A DNA stretch of 64,000 nt, taken from the NCBI GenBank assembly GCA_964610465.1, contig CAZSWA010000002.1:13423-77422 (forward strand). The letters run 5' to 3'. The stretch comes from an uncultured Gammaproteobacteria bacterium (lineage in GTDB: Bacteria > Patescibacteriota > Microgenomatia > Levybacterales > UBA12049). Made by a program: the position numbers and the translations under genes. Under the pieces are notes generated by a model. That model saw only the letters and a program-made list of their open reading frames with translations, was not told the DNA's origin and did not search any database. Shown here one piece after another: positions 4,561 to 63,081 of this stretch (position 1 is the stretch's first letter; each line of letters begins with the position of its first letter).

Positions 4561-7500
4561 ATGAAACAAATGAAAAACGAAAAAAAGTTTCAAAAGGTAT
4601 TAGTTCTTGGTTCCGGTGCACTCAAAATAGGGGAGGCAGGAGAGTTTGATTATTCTGGCTCTCAGGCAATAAAAGCAATGAAAGAAGAGGGGATACAAAC
4701 AGTATTGGTCAATCCCAATATCGCAACTATACAAACTTCAAAATTTCTTGCTGACTCAGTGTATTTTCTGCCGGTCAATGAATTTTTTGTTACAAAAGTG
4801 ATAGAAAAGGAAAAACCTGATGGCATTCTCTTATCTTTTGGCGGACAGACAGCACTAAATTGCGGTATTCAACTGTACAAAAAGAAAATTCTTGAGAGAA
4901 ATGGCATCGAAATTTTGGGAACTCCCATGTCTGCAATTCTTTTGTCAGAAGACAGAAAAAAATTTGCCAATCATCTGCACAAACTTAATGTCTCAACACC
5001 AATCAGTAAAACTGCATATAAAACAAGAGAGGCTTTAGAAATTGCACAGGGATTAGGCTATCCGGTTATGGTACGTGCAGGATTTGCGCTTGGAGGACAG
5101 GGATCTGGTATTGCACAAAATGAGGAGCATCTAAAACAAATTGCTGACCATGCGTTTTCATTTGTACCCCAAATTCTGGTTGAAAAATATCTGCATCACT
5201 ATAAAGAAGTTGAATATGAAGTAGTCAGAGATAAATATGACAACTGTATTACAGTCTGCAATATGGAGAATATGGACCCGCTTGGAATTCATACTGGTGA
5301 ATCAATTGTTATTGCTCCAAGCCAAACGCTTACCAATTTTGAATATCATACCCTTCGCAATATTTCTATCAAAATTGTAAAAAGTCTTGGGATAGTAGGC
5401 GAGTGCAATGTACAGTTTGCGTTGAATCCGCGTCCACAAAATGATACTTCAATTGAGTATTACGTAATAGAACTGAATGCACGGCTTTCAAGAAGTTCAG
5501 CACTTGCTAGTAAAGCAACCGGATATCCTTTGGCATATGTTGCAGCCAAGTTGGCTCTTGGAAAGAATCTTACCCAATTGCAAAATAAAGTCACCAAAGC
5601 AACCCAATTTTGTTTTGAGCCTGCACTCGATTATGTCACTGTCAAAATTCCAAGATGGGATATTGAAAAATTCAAAGGTGCAGAAGAAACTATCGGCAGC
5701 AGCATGAAATCAGTTGGAGAAGTAATGGGAATCGGACGAACTTTTGAAGAAGCATATCAGAAGGCGCTTCGAATGCTGGATTTAAATTTTGAAGGAGCAG
5801 TTAATGAAAAAGTATTTCAAAAGAATGGAGAAAAAATCACCCATCTTCTTGGAAGACCAACTCCCAAACGTATGTTTGCAATAGCCAAGGCATTGATGGA
5901 AGGAGTAAGTGTTGAAGAAATCTATGATATCACTGGCATTGATCCGTGGTTTATCTATAGAATCAAAAATATTGTAGAAGAAGAAAAGAAATTAACCATG
6001 TCATCTCGAAAAGTTCTGCAAAGCAGAACGACGAGAGATCCCCTACACCCAAGTAGCATGCATGAGATTTCTCCCCACACTCGGCGGGGTCGAAATGACA
6101 CAATAACAAAATCCCATCTTCTTCACCTTAAGCAGCTTGGTTTTTCTGACAAAAGAATAGGATTTCTCTTAGGAGTATCTGAGCTTGAAATACGAAGTTT
6201 GAGGAAAAAATATGAAGTTATCCCTTCCATATTTCAAATTGATACGTTGGCTGGAGAATTTCCTGCTCAAACTAATTATCTCTACCTCACTTATAATGGT
6301 GCTCATAATGATGTGAAACCTACCAATCAGCAAGGAGTCATTGTCTTAGGTTCTGGACCATATAGAATTGGTTCATCGGTTGAGTTTGACTGGACAAGTG
6401 TCAACACAGTTATGTCCCTAAAAAAACATGGGAAAAAATCAATCATTATCAATTGCAACCCCGAAACTGTTTCAACTGATTATGATATTTCTGATAGATT
6501 GTATTTTGAAGAATTGACCTTTGAACGTATTGCTGATGTGTATGACTTTGAAAATCCCTATGGAGTTATTATTTCAGTTGGTGGACAAACACCAAACAAC
6601 AGAGCAATGCCATTAAAAAAATATGGATGCAATATACTAGGAACTGACCCTTATGATATTGATAGAGCAGAAGATAGGAATAAATTTTCAGCACTTCTTG
6701 ATACACTTGGTATTAAGCAGCCTTCCTGGAATAAGTTTAATAATATTGATGAAGCGCTCAAATTTGCTGAGAAAGTCGGCTTTCCTGTTCTTATTCGTCC
6801 ATCCTATGTATTATCTGGAAGTAACATGAAAATTTGTCACAATCCTGCAGAACTTATGCAATATCTTGAGCAAGTCTCAACAATTTCTCAGGAGTATCCT
6901 ATCACTGTCTCAAAGTTTATACGTGATGCCAAAGAAATCGAGATAGATGGTGTTTCTGAAAAAGGAATTGTGAAAGCAATTGTTATCTCAGAACATATCG
7001 AAAATGCAGGTGTTCATTCAGGAGACGCGTCAATTCTGCTTCCACCGCAAAAACTCTATATTGCAACACTTCGGAAATTAAGAATCATTGCTGCTGATGT
7101 GGCAGAAGCGCTCAACATCACAGGACCATTTAATATCCAGTGTCTTGCCAAAGACAATCAGGTTTCAGTTATTGAAATCAATCTTCGCGCCTCCCGCACA
7201 TTACCGTTTATTTCGAAAGTAACAGGAGTGAATTTTATTGAGATGGCAACAGATGCGTTTTTCCATAAAAATATAAAACCTTTATCAATCAATTTCCTTG
7301 ACTACAATTATGTTGCAGCAAAAGTCGCACAGTTCTCCTTTGCTCGTTTAACTGGAGCAGACCCTGTGCTTGATGTTGAAATGGCATCAACAGGAGAAGT
7401 TGCCTGCTTTGGCGAAGATGCGGAAGAAGCATTTCTCAAAGCAGAATTAAGTGTGGGAGGCCATATACCACAAAAAGGAGTCTTTGTAAGTCTTGGCGGA

Positions 7501-7950
7501 GATATAAATAAAGTAAAATTCCTGGAAAGCGCAAGAAGATTACAAATACTTGGGCTCCCTATATATGCAACTGAAAAAACTGCCAAATATCTTAAAAAAA
7601 ATGGAATTCAAGTAAAACGCTTGTATAAATTGCATGAACAAAAAACTCCAAACATTTTACAGTACTTTCAGAAAGGCAAAGTTGACCTTGCAATTAATAT
7701 TACAGATAAAGATATAAAAAAAGAAGTGAATGATGACTATGCGATTCGTAGAACTGCAGTGGATTTAAATATCCCGCTTTTTACCAATCCGCAAAAAGCA
7801 GCACTTTTTATCAAAGCACTGTCTGAAAAAAATCTGCTACATCTTCCTATCAAGTCATGGGATCAATATCTCAATAATGAAAAAGCATCTAAAAAAATAA
7901 AAAAAGCTCCACAGATTGCAGAATTAATCACAACAAAAACCGATCTATAA
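4561..7950 (+). CDS. carB: Carbamoyl-phosphate synthase large subunit. It carries a ~28-aa GC-rich in-frame insertion in the oligomerisation region.
   Basis: Two ATP-grasp halves, an LGFSD oligomerisation motif and a C-terminal MGS-like domain across 1129 aa. The insertion at nt 6027-6110 is listed separately. Confidence 0.95.
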   Translation: MKQMKNEKKFQKVLVLGSGALKIGEAGEFDYSGSQAIKAMKEEGIQTVLVNPNIATIQTSKFLADSVYFLPVNEFFVTKVIEKEKPDGILLSFGGQTALNCGIQLYKKKILERNGIEILGTPMSAILLSEDRKKFANHLHKLNVSTPISKTAYKTREALEIAQGLGYPVMVRAGFALGGQGSGIAQNEEHLKQIADHAFSFVPQILVEKYLHHYKEVEYEVVRDKYDNCITVCNMENMDPLGIHTGESIVIAPSQTLTNFEYHTLRNISIKIVKSLGIVGECNVQFALNPRPQNDTSIEYYVIELNARLSRSSALASKATGYPLAYVAAKLALGKNLTQLQNKVTKATQFCFEPALDYVTVKIPRWDIEKFKGAEETIGSSMKSVGEVMGIGRTFEEAYQKALRMLDLNFEGAVNEKVFQKNGEKITHLLGRPTPKRMFAIAKALMEGVSVEEIYDITGIDPWFIYRIKNIVEEEKKLTMSSRKVLQSRTTRDPLHPSSMHEISPHTRRGRNDTITKSHLLHLKQLGFSDKRIGFLLGVSELEIRSLRKKYEVIPSIFQIDTLAGEFPAQTNYLYLTYNGAHNDVKPTNQQGVIVLGSGPYRIGSSVEFDWTSVNTVMSLKKHGKKSIIINCNPETVSTDYDISDRLYFEELTFERIADVYDFENPYGVIISVGGQTPNNRAMPLKKYGCNILGTDPYDIDRAEDRNKFSALLDTLGIKQPSWNKFNNIDEALKFAEKVGFPVLIRPSYVLSGSNMKICHNPAELMQYLEQVSTISQEYPITVSKFIRDAKEIEIDGVSEKGIVKAIVISEHIENAGVHSGDASILLPPQKLYIATLRKLRIIAADVAEALNITGPFNIQCLAKDNQVSVIEINLRASRTLPFISKVTGVNFIEMATDAFFHKNIKPLSINFLDYNYVAAKVAQFSFARLTGADPVLDVEMASTGEVACFGEDAEEAFLKAELSVGGHIPQKGVFVSLGGDINKVKFLESARRLQILGLPIYATEKTAKYLKKNGIQVKRLYKLHEQKTPNILQYFQKGKVDLAINITDKDIKKEVNDDYAIRRTAVDLNIPLFTNPQKAALFIKALSEKNLLHLPIKSWDQYLNNEKASKKIKKAPQIAELITTKTDL
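6027..6110 (+). repeat. GC-rich palindromic miniature element inserted in-frame in carB (family copy A)
   Basis: The ~50% GC patch lies in a ~33% GC gene and contains CCCC..GGGG and TCGAAATGACACAATAAC. It shares GA(G/A)(A/T)TTTCTCCC and a TCGA..ACAATAA tail with the pepP element. Confidence 0.45.
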
Positions 7951-36917: not shown

Positions 36918-39176
36918 TTATTGTTTAATAGTTTTCCCTACTTGATCTCGTAAGTTTTTTGTACAATGTTCACAAAATTCATGTTTATTAATAAGCCCTT
37001 CTCTGATTTTTTCAAGCAATTGTTGTTGCTCGAAGTCAGGAGTGTTTGTTCTAAATAATTTTTCTATCATATCTGAATCACTTACAAATTCTTCTACAGC
37101 ACTACGTAATTTTGGTAAAGCTTGTAAGAGAGACTCTGTTGATATATCCTTTCCCTGGCGATGTAAGCTTCCAGTAGCTCTTGCTGCTTCAGATCTTATA
37201 TCTTCACGTTGTTTATTTGATAATGGTACTCTTTCTCCATTACCAAGAACAGGATTGCTACAATCTTCAATTCTATTTAATTCAGATTCTGAGAGAATAT
37301 TTTTTATTTCATCATTATGCCTTTTTTCCAACGGATCTCTTTGCTCATATTCTTTTCTTTTTCCAGGTGATAACATTACTGTATCAATGTAACTATTAAA
37401 TATTCTGTCTCTCTTCTGCTCAAACGATTCTTCTTCAGTTCCAGCTCCTTCCATACGAATTATTTTAAGAAGCCATTTTCTATAATCTCCAATTTCATCA
37501 TCAATGATATGTAACCATGCTTGTTTATTGCTACTAATTGAACTTCGGGTATCTGCTTCTATTTCTTTTCGCAGGTCTACCAGCGCATCAAAAGGACTCA
37601 AGCATTTTGCGCCGTTTTCTTTTGCCTTTAATACGATATTGTAAAATTTATCTGTAATATATGCTTCAGACATGCCGATAGCACCTTCTCCATTCGCTTT
37701 TCCATCTTCTTCAATATCTTTTCTATTTTTTTGAGAGAAACCATCTTCTGATCTACCATCATAAATAGCAAGCTTGATTCTTGGTGTTAATTTTTTATCA
37801 ACAAGCTGTTTGTCTTTAGGTTGCGTAATCCTTGATAATATAGCAACATTCGCAATTCTTTCAGCTCTGATATGCATGGCATCCTTATCAAAAAAACCTC
37901 GTTCTCTTCTTCTTTTTCTATGCAATTCTTTTATATTACGGTAAAACGATATGTCTTTTTTCTCTAATGTCGTTTCTAATTCACTCACTACCTCTGATCG
38001 TGAAAGGCGGTAATGAATATCAACTTTTTCAAGACGTTCTTCAATTGCTTTTGCTATATCTCCTGAGGAATCTTTTTTGCCTTTTTCTTCAATTTCTCCA
38101 AGAAGAGTGTCGTACTCTTCATTCGTAGTTTCAGCAAATATCATAAAATCAAGATTTTCATATCGTAAACTATCTATATTCAAAGATCCGCTGCGAATAA
38201 AGTTAAGTATATCATTTCTAAATTTAGGATCATGCTTCATAAATTCAGCAATATGAAGGATTCCTCCATTCGCGCCTAATATTCTTTTAAATGCGTCCTT
38301 TCTCCCTTCTTCAGAATTAGTATCCTTTGGTTCAAGAGTTGCTACCCCACGTGACAACTGTGACGAGGAGAATGCCACTGGTTCTGTAAGAACTTCTGAT
38401 GGATTATAATGATGTTCTTTTAAAAGAGCTTCACAATGGGCACATAGCCCTCTTGTTACTCCATATGCTTTTCGTAATCCTTGTCTTTCTTGAACTGTTA
38501 TATTTTTCCCTGCGAGAAGAGCTTTTAATGCTGGTTCATTTATTTCACAACCTTTTATTATGTCAAAAGATTCTTTATCTCCAAAATGTTTTACTGTATA
38601 GTCAATTGTGCCTTGTTTAATAGCATCTAAAATAACCGACTTTCCTGATCCACTTGGACCTACAAGGAAAACCATTTTTGAAGATTGTGTTTCTCCTGCT
38701 TGTTTTCTCGCAATATTTTCTATCTGCTCTTTCACTTCTCCCATTCCATCTACTCTCTCAGTTGAATCTCTCATTGATGTATAGAACGTATTTTCCATAT
38801 GGCCTGAAGGAAGTGGATAATGTTCACCTTCCATTAATGCTCTATATACACGGTGGGCAGCATTTCTTGCAGGACGCTTTTCTTTTGTTGCGATTTTATT
38901 GACGAGCTCTTGAACAGTCAATTCTCTATCTACTATTTCTCTTTCTTGCTGTTCACGAGCTATACGTTCAAGAATAGGACGAGGGTCATAATATACCTCC
39001 TTTTCAGGTATTTTTCTGGATTTTCTTCTTGTTTCTCGTGTTATTGAGAGAACTTTAGGTGACGGTAAGATATCAACTTGTGAAGCTCTTCTCACTCTAC
39101 TAGAAGTTACTTCACGAGGAAACTGCCCATTAGAAACGGCATTTAGAGGTAAATCTTCACTTCTTTCAAGACTCAT
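36918..39176 (-). CDS. PrkA-family serine protein kinase-like AAA ATPase (YeaG/PrkA homologue) with an N-terminal extension
   Basis: Walker A LVGPSGSGKS, then DIIKGCEINEPAL (cf. B. subtilis PrkA AIKGCPMHEDPL), and LHIAEFMKHDPKFRNDILNFIRSG (cf. MEFQEMLKCDEKFLWHLLSLTQEG). Two CxHC pairs. Confidence 0.7.
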   Translation of the reverse strand: MSLERSEDLPLNAVSNGQFPREVTSSRVRRASQVDILPSPKVLSITRETRRKSRKIPEKEVYYDPRPILERIAREQQEREIVDRELTVQELVNKIATKEKRPARNAAHRVYRALMEGEHYPLPSGHMENTFYTSMRDSTERVDGMGEVKEQIENIARKQAGETQSSKMVFLVGPSGSGKSVILDAIKQGTIDYTVKHFGDKESFDIIKGCEINEPALKALLAGKNITVQERQGLRKAYGVTRGLCAHCEALLKEHHYNPSEVLTEPVAFSSSQLSRGVATLEPKDTNSEEGRKDAFKRILGANGGILHIAEFMKHDPKFRNDILNFIRSGSLNIDSLRYENLDFMIFAETTNEEYDTLLGEIEEKGKKDSSGDIAKAIEERLEKVDIHYRLSRSEVVSELETTLEKKDISFYRNIKELHRKRRRERGFFDKDAMHIRAERIANVAILSRITQPKDKQLVDKKLTPRIKLAIYDGRSEDGFSQKNRKDIEEDGKANGEGAIGMSEAYITDKFYNIVLKAKENGAKCLSPFDALVDLRKEIEADTRSSISSNKQAWLHIIDDEIGDYRKWLLKIIRMEGAGTEEESFEQKRDRIFNSYIDTVMLSPGKRKEYEQRDPLEKRHNDEIKNILSESELNRIEDCSNPVLGNGERVPLSNKQREDIRSEAARATGSLHRQGKDISTESLLQALPKLRSAVEEFVSDSDMIEKLFRTNTPDFEQQQLLEKIREGLINKHEFCEHCTKNLRDQVGKTIKQ

Positions 39177-39228: not shown

Positions 39229-40053
39229 TCAGGCTATTTTACTTCGTAAATTAACTTTTTCTCCTATATATTTTGCCGCTACTTTTTCGAGTCTTCTGTC
39301 CTTGATATAAAACTCCCCAGCTGTCTTAATAATCCCTTTTACTTGCTCTATCACTTGAGATTGTTTATCATCAGGTAATGCGTTTTCTGTTGAAAGAAGC
39401 AGCGGAGTTCTATAGAGTGGATTACTTCTCTGTATCCTTCTTGCTTCAGATATATTTCTCAGTGTATATGCTGACCCTTCTCTTGTAAGACTTTTTACTC
39501 TTGCTTTTTCTCTTCCATCAGTTGTTCCAGTAGTAATAAATAGCTCATCTTCTCCATCAACTTGAGATACCTCTTGAAATCTACCATCTGTTGTCTCAAG
39601 TCTCATTCTATGCCATACCTCAATTGGTTTTCTCCCTTCACTCTCTGCTAAAGATTTCATATGTGCATAAAGTTTTTTATCTTCTGGAGTAAGTAGTTTA
39701 CCATCCCCATTATATTTTCCCAATACAATTGTCATGTTTTGAAATATGTTTCTGATGTTTTGTTGTGTCTCACGAATTTTCTGTCTTGATGCCCTTTCAA
39801 TATCTTCTGAGCCTACTGTTTCCTCAGGTTGGTATATAACACGTTCGCTTCCAGGGGGAATATCCTCACTTAAAAGACCATGTTCCGCTTGCCAACGGGC
39901 AAATCTTGCACGCTTAGGATCTATTCCTTGTTCTTGCAATTCTCCTTCCTGATTAGTAACTCTTAATTTAGCTAATCTGTTAACTTCTTGTTGTGTGAAA
40001 CCTTTTGCTTGTAAACTTTGAATATCTTGTAAATTTTCTTTAGGTACTGCCAT
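39229..40053 (-). CDS. Hypothetical protein (~274 aa) upstream of the PrkA-like gene
   Basis: ORF with the start taken at ATG 40053 (MAVPKEN). It is preceded on its own strand by leader repeat copy 1 with a terminator. Confidence 0.5.
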   Translation of the reverse strand: MAVPKENLQDIQSLQAKGFTQQEVNRLAKLRVTNQEGELQEQGIDPKRARFARWQAEHGLLSEDIPPGSERVIYQPEETVGSEDIERASRQKIRETQQNIRNIFQNMTIVLGKYNGDGKLLTPEDKKLYAHMKSLAESEGRKPIEVWHRMRLETTDGRFQEVSQVDGEDELFITTGTTDGREKARVKSLTREGSAYTLRNISEARRIQRSNPLYRTPLLLSTENALPDDKQSQVIEQVKGIIKTAGEFYIKDRRLEKVAAKYIGEKVNLRSKIA

Positions 40054-40063
40054 ATTTTTATAC

Positions 40064-40166
40064 AAAAAAACCCCTCTTTGTGTGAGGGGAAGGTTTGTCG
40101 ATATTTTTTCTACCTACTCCTCCCTCCCCTTCATCTTTTGAAGGGTAAAGCAGATAATAGAAAATG
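40064..40166 (-). promoter_or_regulatory. Leader repeat copy 1: purine-rich segment, small hairpin, then intrinsic terminator (CCCCTC..GAGGGG plus U7) ~10 nt before the start codon of the 274-aa gene
   Basis: Directly seen, and homologous to copy 2 (~75% identity over ~100 nt). Confidence 0.45.
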
Positions 40167-40247
40167 TATGTTTCATGTTCATGGTTTCATTAAATCACCA
40201 AACTAATTGCTTGTCAATAGTTTTATTGTTGCTCTTATAAAAAGTTC

Positions 40248-40487
40248 TTAAAATGTGGGCAGATCAGGATAACGTAAATCAGGATCAATTTCTTCTGGTC
40301 CTTTTTGTCGAGGTGGTTTTGGAGTTTTTTCTTGAGCAATAAAGATATCTTTCTCATTTCTTTTCTTCTCCCCTTGCAACTTTTCTATCTCATGACGAGG
40401 TCCTTTTTTATATTCTTCTTTCCGTGCTTTCAGTTTATCCTGTGCTTCAATAGAGAATTGGGCTAATAATCTTGATTCGTTTTCCAT
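40248..40487 (-). CDS. Small highly charged hypothetical protein (79 aa)
   Basis: ORF bracketed by the two leader repeats. Confidence 0.4.
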   Translation of the reverse strand: MENESRLLAQFSIEAQDKLKARKEEYKKGPRHEIEKLQGEKKRNEKDIFIAQEKTPKPPRQKGPEEIDPDLRYPDLPTF

Positions 40488-40496
40488 ATTTTTTCC

Positions 40497-40590
40497 AAAA
40501 AAAATCCCTCTTGTCAGAGGGTTAGGTATACTATTTTCTTTACAGAATACCTATCCCCTCCTTATGAAGGGAAAAGTAAAGAAAAATGCA
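40497..40590 (-). promoter_or_regulatory. Leader repeat copy 2: same architecture (CCCTCT..AGAGGG plus U8) ~10 nt before the start codon of the 79-aa gene
   Basis: Directly seen. On the + strand it ends at the ATG of a spurious N-terminal extension of rpmE. Confidence 0.45.
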
Positions 40591-40704
40591 AAAGAAGAGT
40601 TATGTATCATATAGTTATGATAGTACAAAAGATTCCGTTTTTCAAGGTTCAGTTCCATCTAGTCTTTACTTGCTACCCAATTTTGAGGGTAAAACCCTGG
40701 CCTC

Positions 40705-40744: not shown

Positions 40745-41044
40745 ATGAAAGCAACTATCCATCCTAAATATTACGAAAACGCTGAGGTAATTTGTGTCTG
40801 TGGAAATAGATTTACCACAGGTTCAACAAGCCCAGTTATTCATGTGGAGCTTTGCAATAAATGCCATCCGTTTTATACCGGCAAGCAGGCTTTTATTGAT
40901 TCACGCTCAAAGATCAAGAATTTCGAAGCCAAACGTCAAGCTGCCACTCAATATCAAACCACGGTAGCCAAGAAAAAAGCTGAGGAAAAGAAAAAGACAG
41001 AAGGTCCAAAGACTCTTCGCGAAATGCTTATGGGGCTTAAATAG
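40745..41044 (+). CDS. rpmE: Ribosomal protein L31 (Zn-ribbon type) with a Lys-rich C-terminal extension
   Basis: MKATIHPKYY..CVCGN..CNKCHPFYTGKQ. The start is at the internal ATG of ORF 40586..41044. Confidence 0.85.
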   Translation: MKATIHPKYYENAEVICVCGNRFTTGSTSPVIHVELCNKCHPFYTGKQAFIDSRSKIKNFEAKRQAATQYQTTVAKKKAEEKKKTEGPKTLREMLMGLK

Positions 41045-41049
41045 CTCTA

Positions 41050-41118
41050 CTGTCATTCTGAGCCGCTTTGGCGAACGAAGAATCCCATGAGATCCTTCGC
41101 TATCGCTCAGGATGACCC
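41050..41118 (+). repeat. GC-rich structured element in the rpmE-prfA spacer (family copy C)
   Basis: A 12-bp long-range stem GTCATTCTGAGC/GCTCAGGATGAC encloses CCCATGAGATCCTTCGC. It shares CATGAGAT..TC with the carB copy. Confidence 0.4.
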
Positions 41119-53364: not shown

Positions 53365-54084
53365 CTAGTAACTTACAAATGTACTTACCTGTGCTTTTGC
53401 ACGGAGTCCATCAAGCCACGGCTGATATTCTTCATTAAGTTTTTCTTGATATAACTTGTCATGTGCTAATTTGTTTAACTGTGCAGGGCTTTGATCTTGT
53501 AGAAGAGTATCTTTATTATTATCTATGTACGTTTGTATATCTTTATCAGTTATCTTAATGCGTTTTGCAAGCATTTTCTCAGCTAGTTTGTCTACCACAA
53601 TAAGTTTTTTGAGATCATTTCTTGTCATATTTTGGGCTTGTAACGCAGAATCTAATTTTTGATTTTGCTTGGCTAAGGTTGATTCCATCTGATTCATTTG
53701 ATCATTTACTTCTTTGTCGCTGACTGTGACATGTTCTCGTTGTGCTTCCTGTTCGACAAGTTTTCTCGTAATGAGTGAATCAAGAACTTGTTTCCCTTGC
53801 TGTTTTTCAAGTTCACTGATTACTGTAAAACGACTTATGGGCTGTCCATTGACAACTGCTGCAACAAAAAGGCCTCTGAAAATATAAAGAAGTGACGCAA
53901 GAACAATAAGTACAAAAGCGGTAATCGCATATGATTTTCTAATCCTAACACCTGAAGTTTTTGTAGTAGAAGTTTGAGATTTTCTAGAAGTATCTATAGT
54001 ATTTTCTTTAGGGACTGCTGTTTTTTTTGCTGTTGTTCTTTTTACTATTTTTTTAGTTGTAGATTTAGCTTTTGTTCTCGGCAT
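53365..54084 (-). CDS. Membrane-anchored SurA N-terminal-domain-like chaperone (no PPIase domain)
   Basis: Basic N-terminal tail, one TM helix, then a SurA_N-type helical domain (..LITRKLVEQEAQ..). Confidence 0.55.
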   Translation of the reverse strand: MPRTKAKSTTKKIVKRTTAKKTAVPKENTIDTSRKSQTSTTKTSGVRIRKSYAITAFVLIVLASLLYIFRGLFVAAVVNGQPISRFTVISELEKQQGKQVLDSLITRKLVEQEAQREHVTVSDKEVNDQMNQMESTLAKQNQKLDSALQAQNMTRNDLKKLIVVDKLAEKMLAKRIKITDKDIQTYIDNNKDTLLQDQSPAQLNKLAHDKLYQEKLNEEYQPWLDGLRAKAQVSTFVSY

Positions 54085-62847: not shown

Positions 62848-63081
62848 TGCAAAATCAATAATGTTGAGCTATTATACTATTCCTAAGGAAAGCACACAAT
62901 AAAGGTTATTTTATCGTGTGCTCTCTAAGTCTAAAACTCACTTGACCTATACATTACCCCATGGATCAAGCGCGTTTGTTTTTGAAGTAAGGAGTGCTTT
63001 TACACTCTTTTTACTTCTTGCAGATTTATTTACAAGAAGTGCCTTCATTATTTCACTCATTTATATCACCCCCTTTCCTCT

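Follow-up and report, generated by a model that had tools for sequence, protein, structure and literature searches.

Two homologous minus-strand leaders ahead of a divergent PrkA-family gene resemble ribosome-mediated transcription attenuators, one of them of a putative phenylalanine type

The stretch of DNA analysed here, 64,000 nucleotides (nt) of contig CAZSWA010000002.1 (positions 13,423 to 77,422, the window), carries on its minus strand three successive genes, for proteins of 79, 274 and 752 amino acids (aa), the first two of which are each preceded by a leader of ~115 nt that starts with a short open reading frame (ORF) and ends in an intrinsic terminator. The leader of the 274-aa gene is called copy 1 and that of the 79-aa gene copy 2. 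The two are, with moderate probability, paralogous ribosome-mediated (leader-peptide) transcription attenuators, copy 2 being of a phenylalanine (Phe) type and copy 1 a diverged paralogue. The parts of the locus, with the pairing strands of each leader numbered as segments 1 to 4, are the following.

40617-40645, minus strand: promoter-like site of copy 2, TTGAAA (40645-40640), 17-nt spacer and TATCAT (40622-40617), 10/12 positions as in the consensus
40551-40610, minus strand: leader ORF of copy 2, 19 codons plus UAG, Phe at codons 7, 9, 10, 11, 13 and 15
40566-40573, minus strand: segment 1 of copy 2 (UUCCCUUC), within codons 13-15 of the leader ORF
40554-40561, minus strand: segment 2 of copy 2 (GGAGGGGA), the purine tract, 3′ arm of hairpin 1:2 and predicted antiterminator strand
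40524-40552, minus strand: middle hairpin of copy 2 (AGGUAU...AUACCU), which begins inside the UAG stop and is present in every predicted conformation
40497-40521, minus strand: intrinsic terminator of copy 2 (terminator scan), CCCUCU-GACA-AGAGGG, A, U8
40248-40487, minus strand: 79-aa ORFan gene (ORF list), charged and of low complexity, ATG 9 nt past the U-tract
40189-40217, minus strand: promoter-like site of copy 1, TTGACA (40217-40212), 17-nt spacer and TTTAAT (40194-40189), 11/12 positions as in the consensus
40114-40182, minus strand: leader ORF of copy 1 (sequence and translation), 22 codons plus UAG, MNMKHTFSIICFTLQKMKGREE followed by the stop
40139-40145, minus strand: segment 1 of copy 1 (CCCUUCA), from prefix folding
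40117-40133, minus strand: segment 2 of copy 1 with its G-rich extension (UGAAGGGGAGGGAGGAG), from predicted folds
40064-40093, minus strand: segment 3 and intrinsic terminator of copy 1 (terminator scan), CCUU, CCCCUC-ACACAAA-GAGGGG and U7
39229-40053, minus strand: 274-aa ORFan gene, ATG 10 nt past the U-tract
36918-39176, minus strand: gene for a divergent PrkA-family protein of 752 aa, separated by 52 nt from the 274-aa gene upstream

The presence of two homologous elements of ~100 nt at this locus (40064-40166 and 40497-40590) was noticed in a first-pass annotation, and it is borne out by the sequence, by alignment and by a repeat search. Local alignment of the two copies gives a score of 45, compared with 17.4 ± 2.5 (maximum 29) for shuffled sequences and 33 for the best other match to the leaders elsewhere in the window on either strand, and the repeat search detects two blocks of 72-78% identity at offsets of 433 and 426 nt. 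In the MAFFT alignment 76 of 129 positions are invariant, a count taken from an alignment that misaligns segment 2 between the copies. Both leaders fold more stably than their shuffles (z = -4.0 and -3.2). The search for further copies, which covered the rest of the window and ~6 kb of extra flanks (L086, L087), returned none, the best local score being 34 against 45. Control of both genes by a common signal, proposed on the grounds of the duplication, fits the paralogy of the leaders.

Each leader ends in the same manner. In copy 1 the hairpin CCCCTCACACAAAGAGGGG (40089-40071) is followed by T7 (40070-40064) and, 10 nt further on, by the ATG at 40053; in copy 2 the hairpin CCCTCTGACAAGAGGG (40521-40506) is followed by T8 (40504-40497) and, after 9 nt, by the ATG at 40487, so that the earlier placement of intrinsic terminators immediately 5′ of the two start codons is correct. 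Both have a GC-rich stem, a short loop and a U-tract of at least 6 nt; the stems are of 6 bp, with 5 GC pairs in copy 1 and 4 in copy 2, and the loops of 7 and 4 nt, respectively. Canonical intergenic terminator sites number only three in the 64 kb, and the two on the minus strand, both situated 18-19 nt ahead of a start codon, are those of the two leaders. The third lies at 62991-63008 on the plus strand; on both strands gene ends are otherwise almost without such terminators, which suggests that this organism ends most of its transcripts by some other means.

It could be argued that these hairpins are mere 3′ terminators, with promoters located downstream of them. A promoter between the U-tract and the ATG was rejected, since neither leader has a TANNNT hexamer there at a workable spacing, and the promoter-less gap places the terminators in 5′ leaders; the 79-aa and 274-aa genes would thus, judging by their sequence, be expressible only by read-through. 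Moreover, the copy 2 hairpin is not a 3′ terminator because there is no upstream gene on its strand, rpmE (L31; true start at ~40745) being divergent from it. The copy 1 terminator stands 159 nt past the stop codon of the 79-aa gene. Two other roles were considered and rejected: that of a bidirectional terminator, as there is no plus-strand T-run, and that of ribosome-binding sites for the purine tracts, as no start codon follows them at a usable distance.

What the first-pass annotation missed is the short ORF at the start of each leader. The promoter-like site of copy 2 is the top-scoring sigma-70-like site in the 6 kb scanned, and its -10 hexamer ends 6 nt ahead of the ATG at 40610. That of copy 1 was read directly from the sequence, because the scan demanded an A at position 2 of the -10 hexamer and therefore did not list it; its -10 hexamer likewise ends 6 nt ahead of an ATG, at 40182. 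Such spacing is not peculiar to the leaders. A Shine-Dalgarno-like 4-mer is present upstream of only 7 of the 63 ORFs of the window, while -10-like TANNNT hexamers peak 6-7 nt ahead of start codons (13 of 48 genes, rpmE included), where their density is ~5 times that at other distances. In the light of both observations leaderless mRNAs appear to be a common, or even a major, mode of expression in this genome, and both leader ORFs, with the ATG 6 nt after the -10 hexamer and with a predicted start site and predicted translation, match the spacing. Apparent examples of the leaderless type elsewhere in the window are those at 40745 (rpmE), 17957, 19648, 53365-54084 and 34672.

The leader ORF of copy 2 has the highest Phe density, 6 of 9 codons, among the 1050 ATG-initiated short ORFs of the window, whereas that of copy 1 contains 3 Phe in 22 codons and no run. 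A second, equally Phe-dense short ORF (MTRSFFIFFFPCFQFILCFNRELG, 40392-40466, plus strand) lies antisense within the 79-aa gene and probably merely mirrors its Lys/Glu-rich coding strand, which shows that base composition by itself can produce short ORFs rich in Phe. Both leader ORFs end at a common UAGGUA directly past the G-rich/purine strand. Between the copies, indels of 8 and 11 nt flank the shared CCCTTCA motif, and since these differ by 3 nt (manual count), both copies stay open from the +1 ATG to UAGGUA; the open frame would therefore be kept by compensation and not by simple identity. An in-frame ATG at 40658 (minus strand), upstream of the predicted -35 hexamer, would lengthen the copy 2 leader ORF to 35 codons (MELNLEKRNLLYYHNYMIHNSS...), a start relevant only if transcription begins further upstream, e.g., at a weaker site at 40761-40733.

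The leader ORFs overlap a set of strands with alternative partners. The purine-rich tracts described earlier (GGGGAGGGAGGAG and AAGGAGGGG) and the CCCTTCA/TGAAGGG hairpin are present, but in copy 2 the purine tract is not a separate upstream element: the small hairpin there is (UU)CCCUUC/GGAGGGG(A), and the tract is its 3′ arm. According to prefix folding, hairpin 1:2 forms first in both leaders (by nt 58; -10.5 and -11.2 kcal/mol) and the terminator is the default outcome. In copy 2 this hairpin appears once 58 nt are transcribed (the -10.5 kcal/mol structure), and the 5′ arm of the terminator, CCCUCU, is taken up by GGAGGG both in the minimum free energy (MFE) fold and whenever segment 1 is masked. 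In copy 1 the hairpin CCCUUCA-AAAGA-UGAAGGG, formed by nt 58, then extends along the pyrimidine and purine tracts to -22.4 kcal/mol, and UGA.GGGGAGGG (40133-40122) pairs with CCUUCCCCUCA (40093-40083) when segment 1 is masked. The G-rich strand that had been suspected of competing for the terminator thus pairs with its 5′ arm in the predicted folds of both copies. Taken over predicted folds, prefix folding and footprint masking, the mutually exclusive 1:2, 2:3 and 3:4 structures are all present.

The effect of a translating ribosome on these structures was calculated with a footprint model, in which the RNA was masked to a point 12 nt past the first base of the A-site codon and the terminator stem was then assigned its probability in the ensemble. 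For copy 2 this probability is 0.56-0.79 at codons 1-9, falls to 0.04-0.19 at codons 10-13 (F F T F) and is at least 0.95 from codon 14 to the stop. For copy 1 it starts out at 0.90-0.99 (codons 1-4), does not exceed 0.21 over codons 6-14 (T F S I I C F T L) and stays at or above 0.81 beyond codon 14. The E. coli pheA leader, used as a positive control, gives the same three states (1.0 at codons 1-4, 0-0.35 at codons 5-11 and at least 0.98 after codon 11) and the same nested 1:4/2:3 antiterminator. Of the four codons in the low-termination window of copy 2 (UUC UUU ACU UUU) three specify Phe, and a ribosome stalled there masks, in the model, segment 1 and not segment 2, which is the placement of regulatory codons in attenuators of this kind. 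The copy 1 window is less clear-cut, with mixed codons that include two for Phe (7 and 12) and two for isoleucine (Ile). When the part upstream of the terminator was dinucleotide-shuffled and the terminator kept, the minimum probability of the terminator stem was as low or lower in only 4.7% of the shuffles for copy 2 and 1.0% for copy 1, two tests that are not independent.

The first-pass annotation had proposed either attenuation or the expression platform of a riboswitch, with an aptamer of an unfamiliar class. The former is supported by the alternative folds, whereas for the latter no Rfam family reaches its threshold: at gathering thresholds Rfam detects nothing in the window but a tRNA, and in the leaders no riboswitch or T-box family is matched even at E ≤ 10. 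The top non-tRNA match in the window is Phe_leader (RF01859) on copy 2 (40497-40611, 35.3 bits, E = 0.039; E = 6.7e-4 in a search of 1.1 kb), and copy 1 scores 21.6 bits; both fall short of the gathering threshold of 55 bits. The leaders also match weakly the small RNAs Arrc14 and ncr1575. The supposed aptamer found no backing, the upstream part consisting of one simple hairpin and of two tracts, a pyrimidine and a purine one, not of a multi-helix structure; a new aptamer class is at this level a possibility. Since the short ORF extends from the predicted transcription start to just past the G-rich strand, the translating ribosome, and not a ligand, is most likely the sensor.

In the proposed mechanism each transcript would begin at or beside the A of the short-ORF AUG and would thus be a leaderless mRNA. 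If it were not translated, segment 1 (CCCUUC) would pair with segment 2 (GGAGGG) as the RNA emerges, and the 3:4 hairpin with its U-tract would end the transcript 9-10 nt before the structural gene. A ribosome that reached the UAG would cover segment 2, so that the terminator would form again. Only a ribosome stalled a few codons earlier, within codons 10-13 of copy 2 or 6-14 of copy 1, would cover segment 1 alone and leave segment 2 to pair with the 5′ arm of the terminator, which would allow read-through. Copy 2 should then answer mainly to scarce Phe-tRNA, and copy 1, because its window has two Phe and two Ile codons, may answer to Phe, to Ile or to slow translation in general. The output would be the 79-aa and 274-aa proteins and probably also the PrkA-like protein, whose gene is probably the last one under leader control. 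The copy 1 terminator would, in addition, end transcripts coming from the 79-aa gene.

Several observations weigh against this interpretation. The shuffle controls are only modestly significant, the -10 hexamer of copy 1 (TTTAAT) is without the usual A at position 2, and in copy 1 no single codon forms a run. The U-rich strand doubles as a pairing arm, so that Phe richness partly follows from it, and the other frames are F/L/S-rich too. For copy 2 without a ribosome the equilibrium MFE structure is the antiterminator (-30.2 vs. -30.1 kcal/mol), and default termination therefore depends on the order of folding. The downstream genes have no link to Phe metabolism. As to comparative evidence, no close relatives of the 274-aa or the PrkA-like protein that would permit a check of ORF conservation or covariation were found anywhere searched, and the other public contigs with the locus are identical in sequence and offer no natural variants. 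A scan of the genome collection with PrkA peptides gave nothing, so that the collection evidently lacks this genome, and a metagenome scan with a PrkA alignment gave three loci at 25-29% identity. The best distant PrkA-like locus (L083) has a plain promoter 11 nt before the ATG and no attenuator.

One alternative, in line with the first-pass annotation, is a translation-independent attenuator, in which a protein, a small ligand or another RNA would bind to the leader (e.g., at the purine tract or the middle hairpin) and thereby select the terminator or the antiterminator, the short ORFs being incidental. The alternative pairings exist with or without leader translation, the conservation between the copies is concentrated in the pairing segments, and the U-rich and G-rich arms alone could explain F-rich and R/G/E-rich ‘codons’. 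Nevertheless, such an attenuator seems unlikely: Rfam offers no match to a riboswitch, a T-box or a protein-binding leader even at E ≤ 10, the ~90 nt before the terminator are made up of one simple hairpin and two tracts of low complexity, the surroundings of the operon show no evident gene for an RNA-binding antiterminator, and it would remain unexplained why in both copies an ATG stands 6 nt after the -10 hexamer and why the frame is open to the shared stop across non-triplet indels. The absence of any regulation is a less probable alternative still; the leaders would then be insulators or constitutive terminators with some leakage, or else each would be a gene for a small RNA or a small protein with its own terminator, and the downstream genes would get residual read-through only. 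The copy 1 hairpin, standing 159 nt past the stop codon, would as a plain 3′ terminator end the transcript of the 79-aa gene, and the weak matches to Arrc14 and ncr1575 reflect a hairpin-plus-terminator shape. Copy 2, on the other hand, has no upstream gene to terminate, the near-absence of canonical terminators from the other gene ends of the window makes these two special, both carry a specific competitor strand for the terminator 5′ arm that dinucleotide shuffles rarely reproduce, and the genes would be left with no promoter of their own.

Even if a ribosome is the sensor, the signal may differ. Leader peptides that report general translation stress are known from antibiotic-inducible resistance genes, and the leaders might respond in the same way to antibiotics, to a shortage of ribosomes or to a deficit of any aminoacyl-tRNA, and not to Phe specifically. 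The mixed codons of the copy 1 stall window would be in line with this, as would the targets, a stress-type PrkA module and two ORFans in place of Phe genes, and the AGG/GAG-rich, Shine-Dalgarno-like codons in which both short ORFs end. The predominance of Phe in the copy 2 window (three of four codons) and the match of its peptide to pheL speak against it, and the copy 1 window, too, still holds two Phe codons, a number of regulatory codons equal to that in E. coli trpL. A general-stress signal is for these reasons given a low probability, and leader-peptide attenuation, Phe-type in copy 2, is retained as the preferred reading.

The 79-aa ORF is also called as a gene on the public contig and its product has no match in a Pfam search, a separate homologue search not having been made for this protein. 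The 274-aa protein has no significant Pfam match, its sole match among 5.8 billion protein clusters is itself, and its AlphaFold2 model, built without an alignment, is unusable (pLDDT, the predicted local distance difference test, of 41). Homology between these two proteins was considered and rejected, as they are unrelated on comparison. The 752-aa protein is recognised by Pfam through the PrkA C-terminal domain (1e-20) and AAA_PrkA (2e-10); its closest relatives are 29-34% identical (exhaustive HMMER search of 1.84 billion representatives, 126 matches), a distance at which leaders can no longer be compared. Word searches with the single sequence and with a 13-sequence profile, which were probably swamped by low-complexity words, returned only the protein itself among the matches listed. 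The usual partners of prkA, a vWA-domain protein and SpoVR (PMC3188799), do not adjoin the gene.

The host is probably a Microgenomates-like and ultra-small bacterium of the Candidate Phyla Radiation (CPR), to judge from CarB (4561-7950, plus strand), which is ~70% identical to CarB of metagenome-assembled genomes of Patescibacteria/Levybacteria, Ktedonobacteria (Chloroflexota) being next. Many of the top CarB matches come from metagenome-assembled TPA entries labelled ‘uncultured Gammaproteobacteria’, a label that may be wrong. On the far side of rpmE, between its stop codon and prfA, lies a 65-nt GC-rich imperfect palindrome (GTCATTCTGAGC...GCTCAGGATGAC, 41052-41116, plus strand), which folds to -28.4 kcal/mol (z = -3.3), has no second copy in the window and matches no Rfam family. 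The prfA ORF in its longest call (310 aa, MRSFAIAQDDP...) begins within this palindrome; the prfA cluster representative with an NCBI source has 296 aa, so that the true prfA start is probably downstream of the 310-aa call.

If the leaders act as proposed, their position would be biologically plausible. The prkA/yeaG gene of other bacteria belongs to those with the strongest induction by (p)ppGpp and in stationary phase (PMC3188799), and by analogy a switch that reads charged tRNA would be a sensible, starvation-linked input for a PrkA-type module. In B. subtilis, PrkA is described in one report as an ATP-dependent protease that regulates sporulation (PMC9512850), and Patescibacteria (CPR) are presented in another as generally having extensive biosynthetic deficits (PMC6851277). 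One may ask whether a CPR bacterium uses leaderless Phe-codon leader peptides to gauge its supply of charged tRNA and couples them directly to a lineage-specific PrkA-type starvation module. This can be put forward only tentatively and with considerable doubt; if true, it would be an attenuator-based functional analogue of the stringent-response control of prkA/yeaG.

In the literature searches no paper on leader-peptide attenuation in Patescibacteria was found, and the element, if confirmed, would be, as far as these searches show, the first leader-peptide attenuator described in the Candidate Phyla Radiation. Confirmation would also extend the classical switch based on ribosome stalling to leaderless translation that does without Shine-Dalgarno sites, and would show it harnessed to a PrkA-type stress module in place of an operon for amino-acid biosynthesis. 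It would give a concrete view of how amino-acid supply is sensed in a poorly sampled, probably host-dependent bacterium, and it would provide a regulatory signal for three genes that cannot otherwise be interpreted, the two ORFans and the highly divergent homologue of PrkA. As a mechanism this is textbook biology; what is of value is the novelty of the host and of the targets, together with the tandem arrangement, and no new principle is established.

The closest known system is the pheA leader of E. coli, whose region was retrieved from strain K-12 and whose pheL peptide (15 residues) was confirmed from the sequence. Copy 2 and pheL (RF01859) are both short ORFs with a run of Phe codons and both contain FAFFFTFP; copy 1 keeps MKH and lacks the Phe run. 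The pheA leader has the same four kinds of segments (CCUUCCCC, GGGAGG, CCUCCC and GGGGGG), and there as in both copies these can either pair as 1:2 and 3:4 hairpins or adopt a nested 2:3/1:4 antiterminator, an intrinsic terminator coming next. There are also differences. The start is predicted to be leaderless in the two copies and is Shine-Dalgarno-led in E. coli pheL; the stop codon lies past segment 2 here and in the loop between segments 1 and 2 in E. coli; downstream there are ORFans and a PrkA-like gene in one case and pheA in the other; and the host is probably a member of the Patescibacteria, while pheL belongs to a gammaproteobacterium. In nucleotide sequence copy 2 is only weakly similar to the E. 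coli leader (block-shuffle p ~0.006) and copy 1 not at all, so that common descent is not demonstrated and the resemblance to pheL is best regarded as functional analogy. It is a possibility that the element descends from, or was exchanged with, a proteobacterial pheL attenuator and was then re-used before non-biosynthetic genes. Since score, gene context and host all fail, the leaders are not members of Rfam Phe_leader but appear to work like one.

The trp, his, leu, thr and ilv attenuators of Proteobacteria and Actinobacteria follow the logic of 1:2, 2:3 and 3:4 pairing; their first structural gene has an intrinsic terminator directly ahead of it, and their regulatory codons lie where stalling of the ribosome sets segment 2 free. 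The pairing logic and the terminator just before the structural gene are common to them and to the present leaders. However, they control the biosynthesis of the amino acid that they sense, whereas here a PrkA-type stress/starvation module and two lineage-specific proteins lie downstream and, unlike in those systems, a single gene cluster contains the element as a tandem duplicate. For the leaderless start a parallel is offered by the polycysteine leaderless short ORFs (LL-sORFs) of mycobacteria, which are described in a preprint as sensing an amino acid and acting on translation (the ‘Cys ribulon’; bioRxiv 10.1101/834739). As far as that description goes, the mycobacterial system has, and the present one is predicted to have, a sensory short ORF at the 5′ AUG of a leaderless transcript, enriched in the codons of one amino acid, and in both a stalled ribosome remodels, or would here remodel, the downstream RNA structure and turn the operon on. 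Compared with the mycobacterial system as described, the switch proposed here ends in a canonical intrinsic terminator and operates in a genome that barely uses Shine-Dalgarno sites, and the amino acid sensed and the target genes differ.

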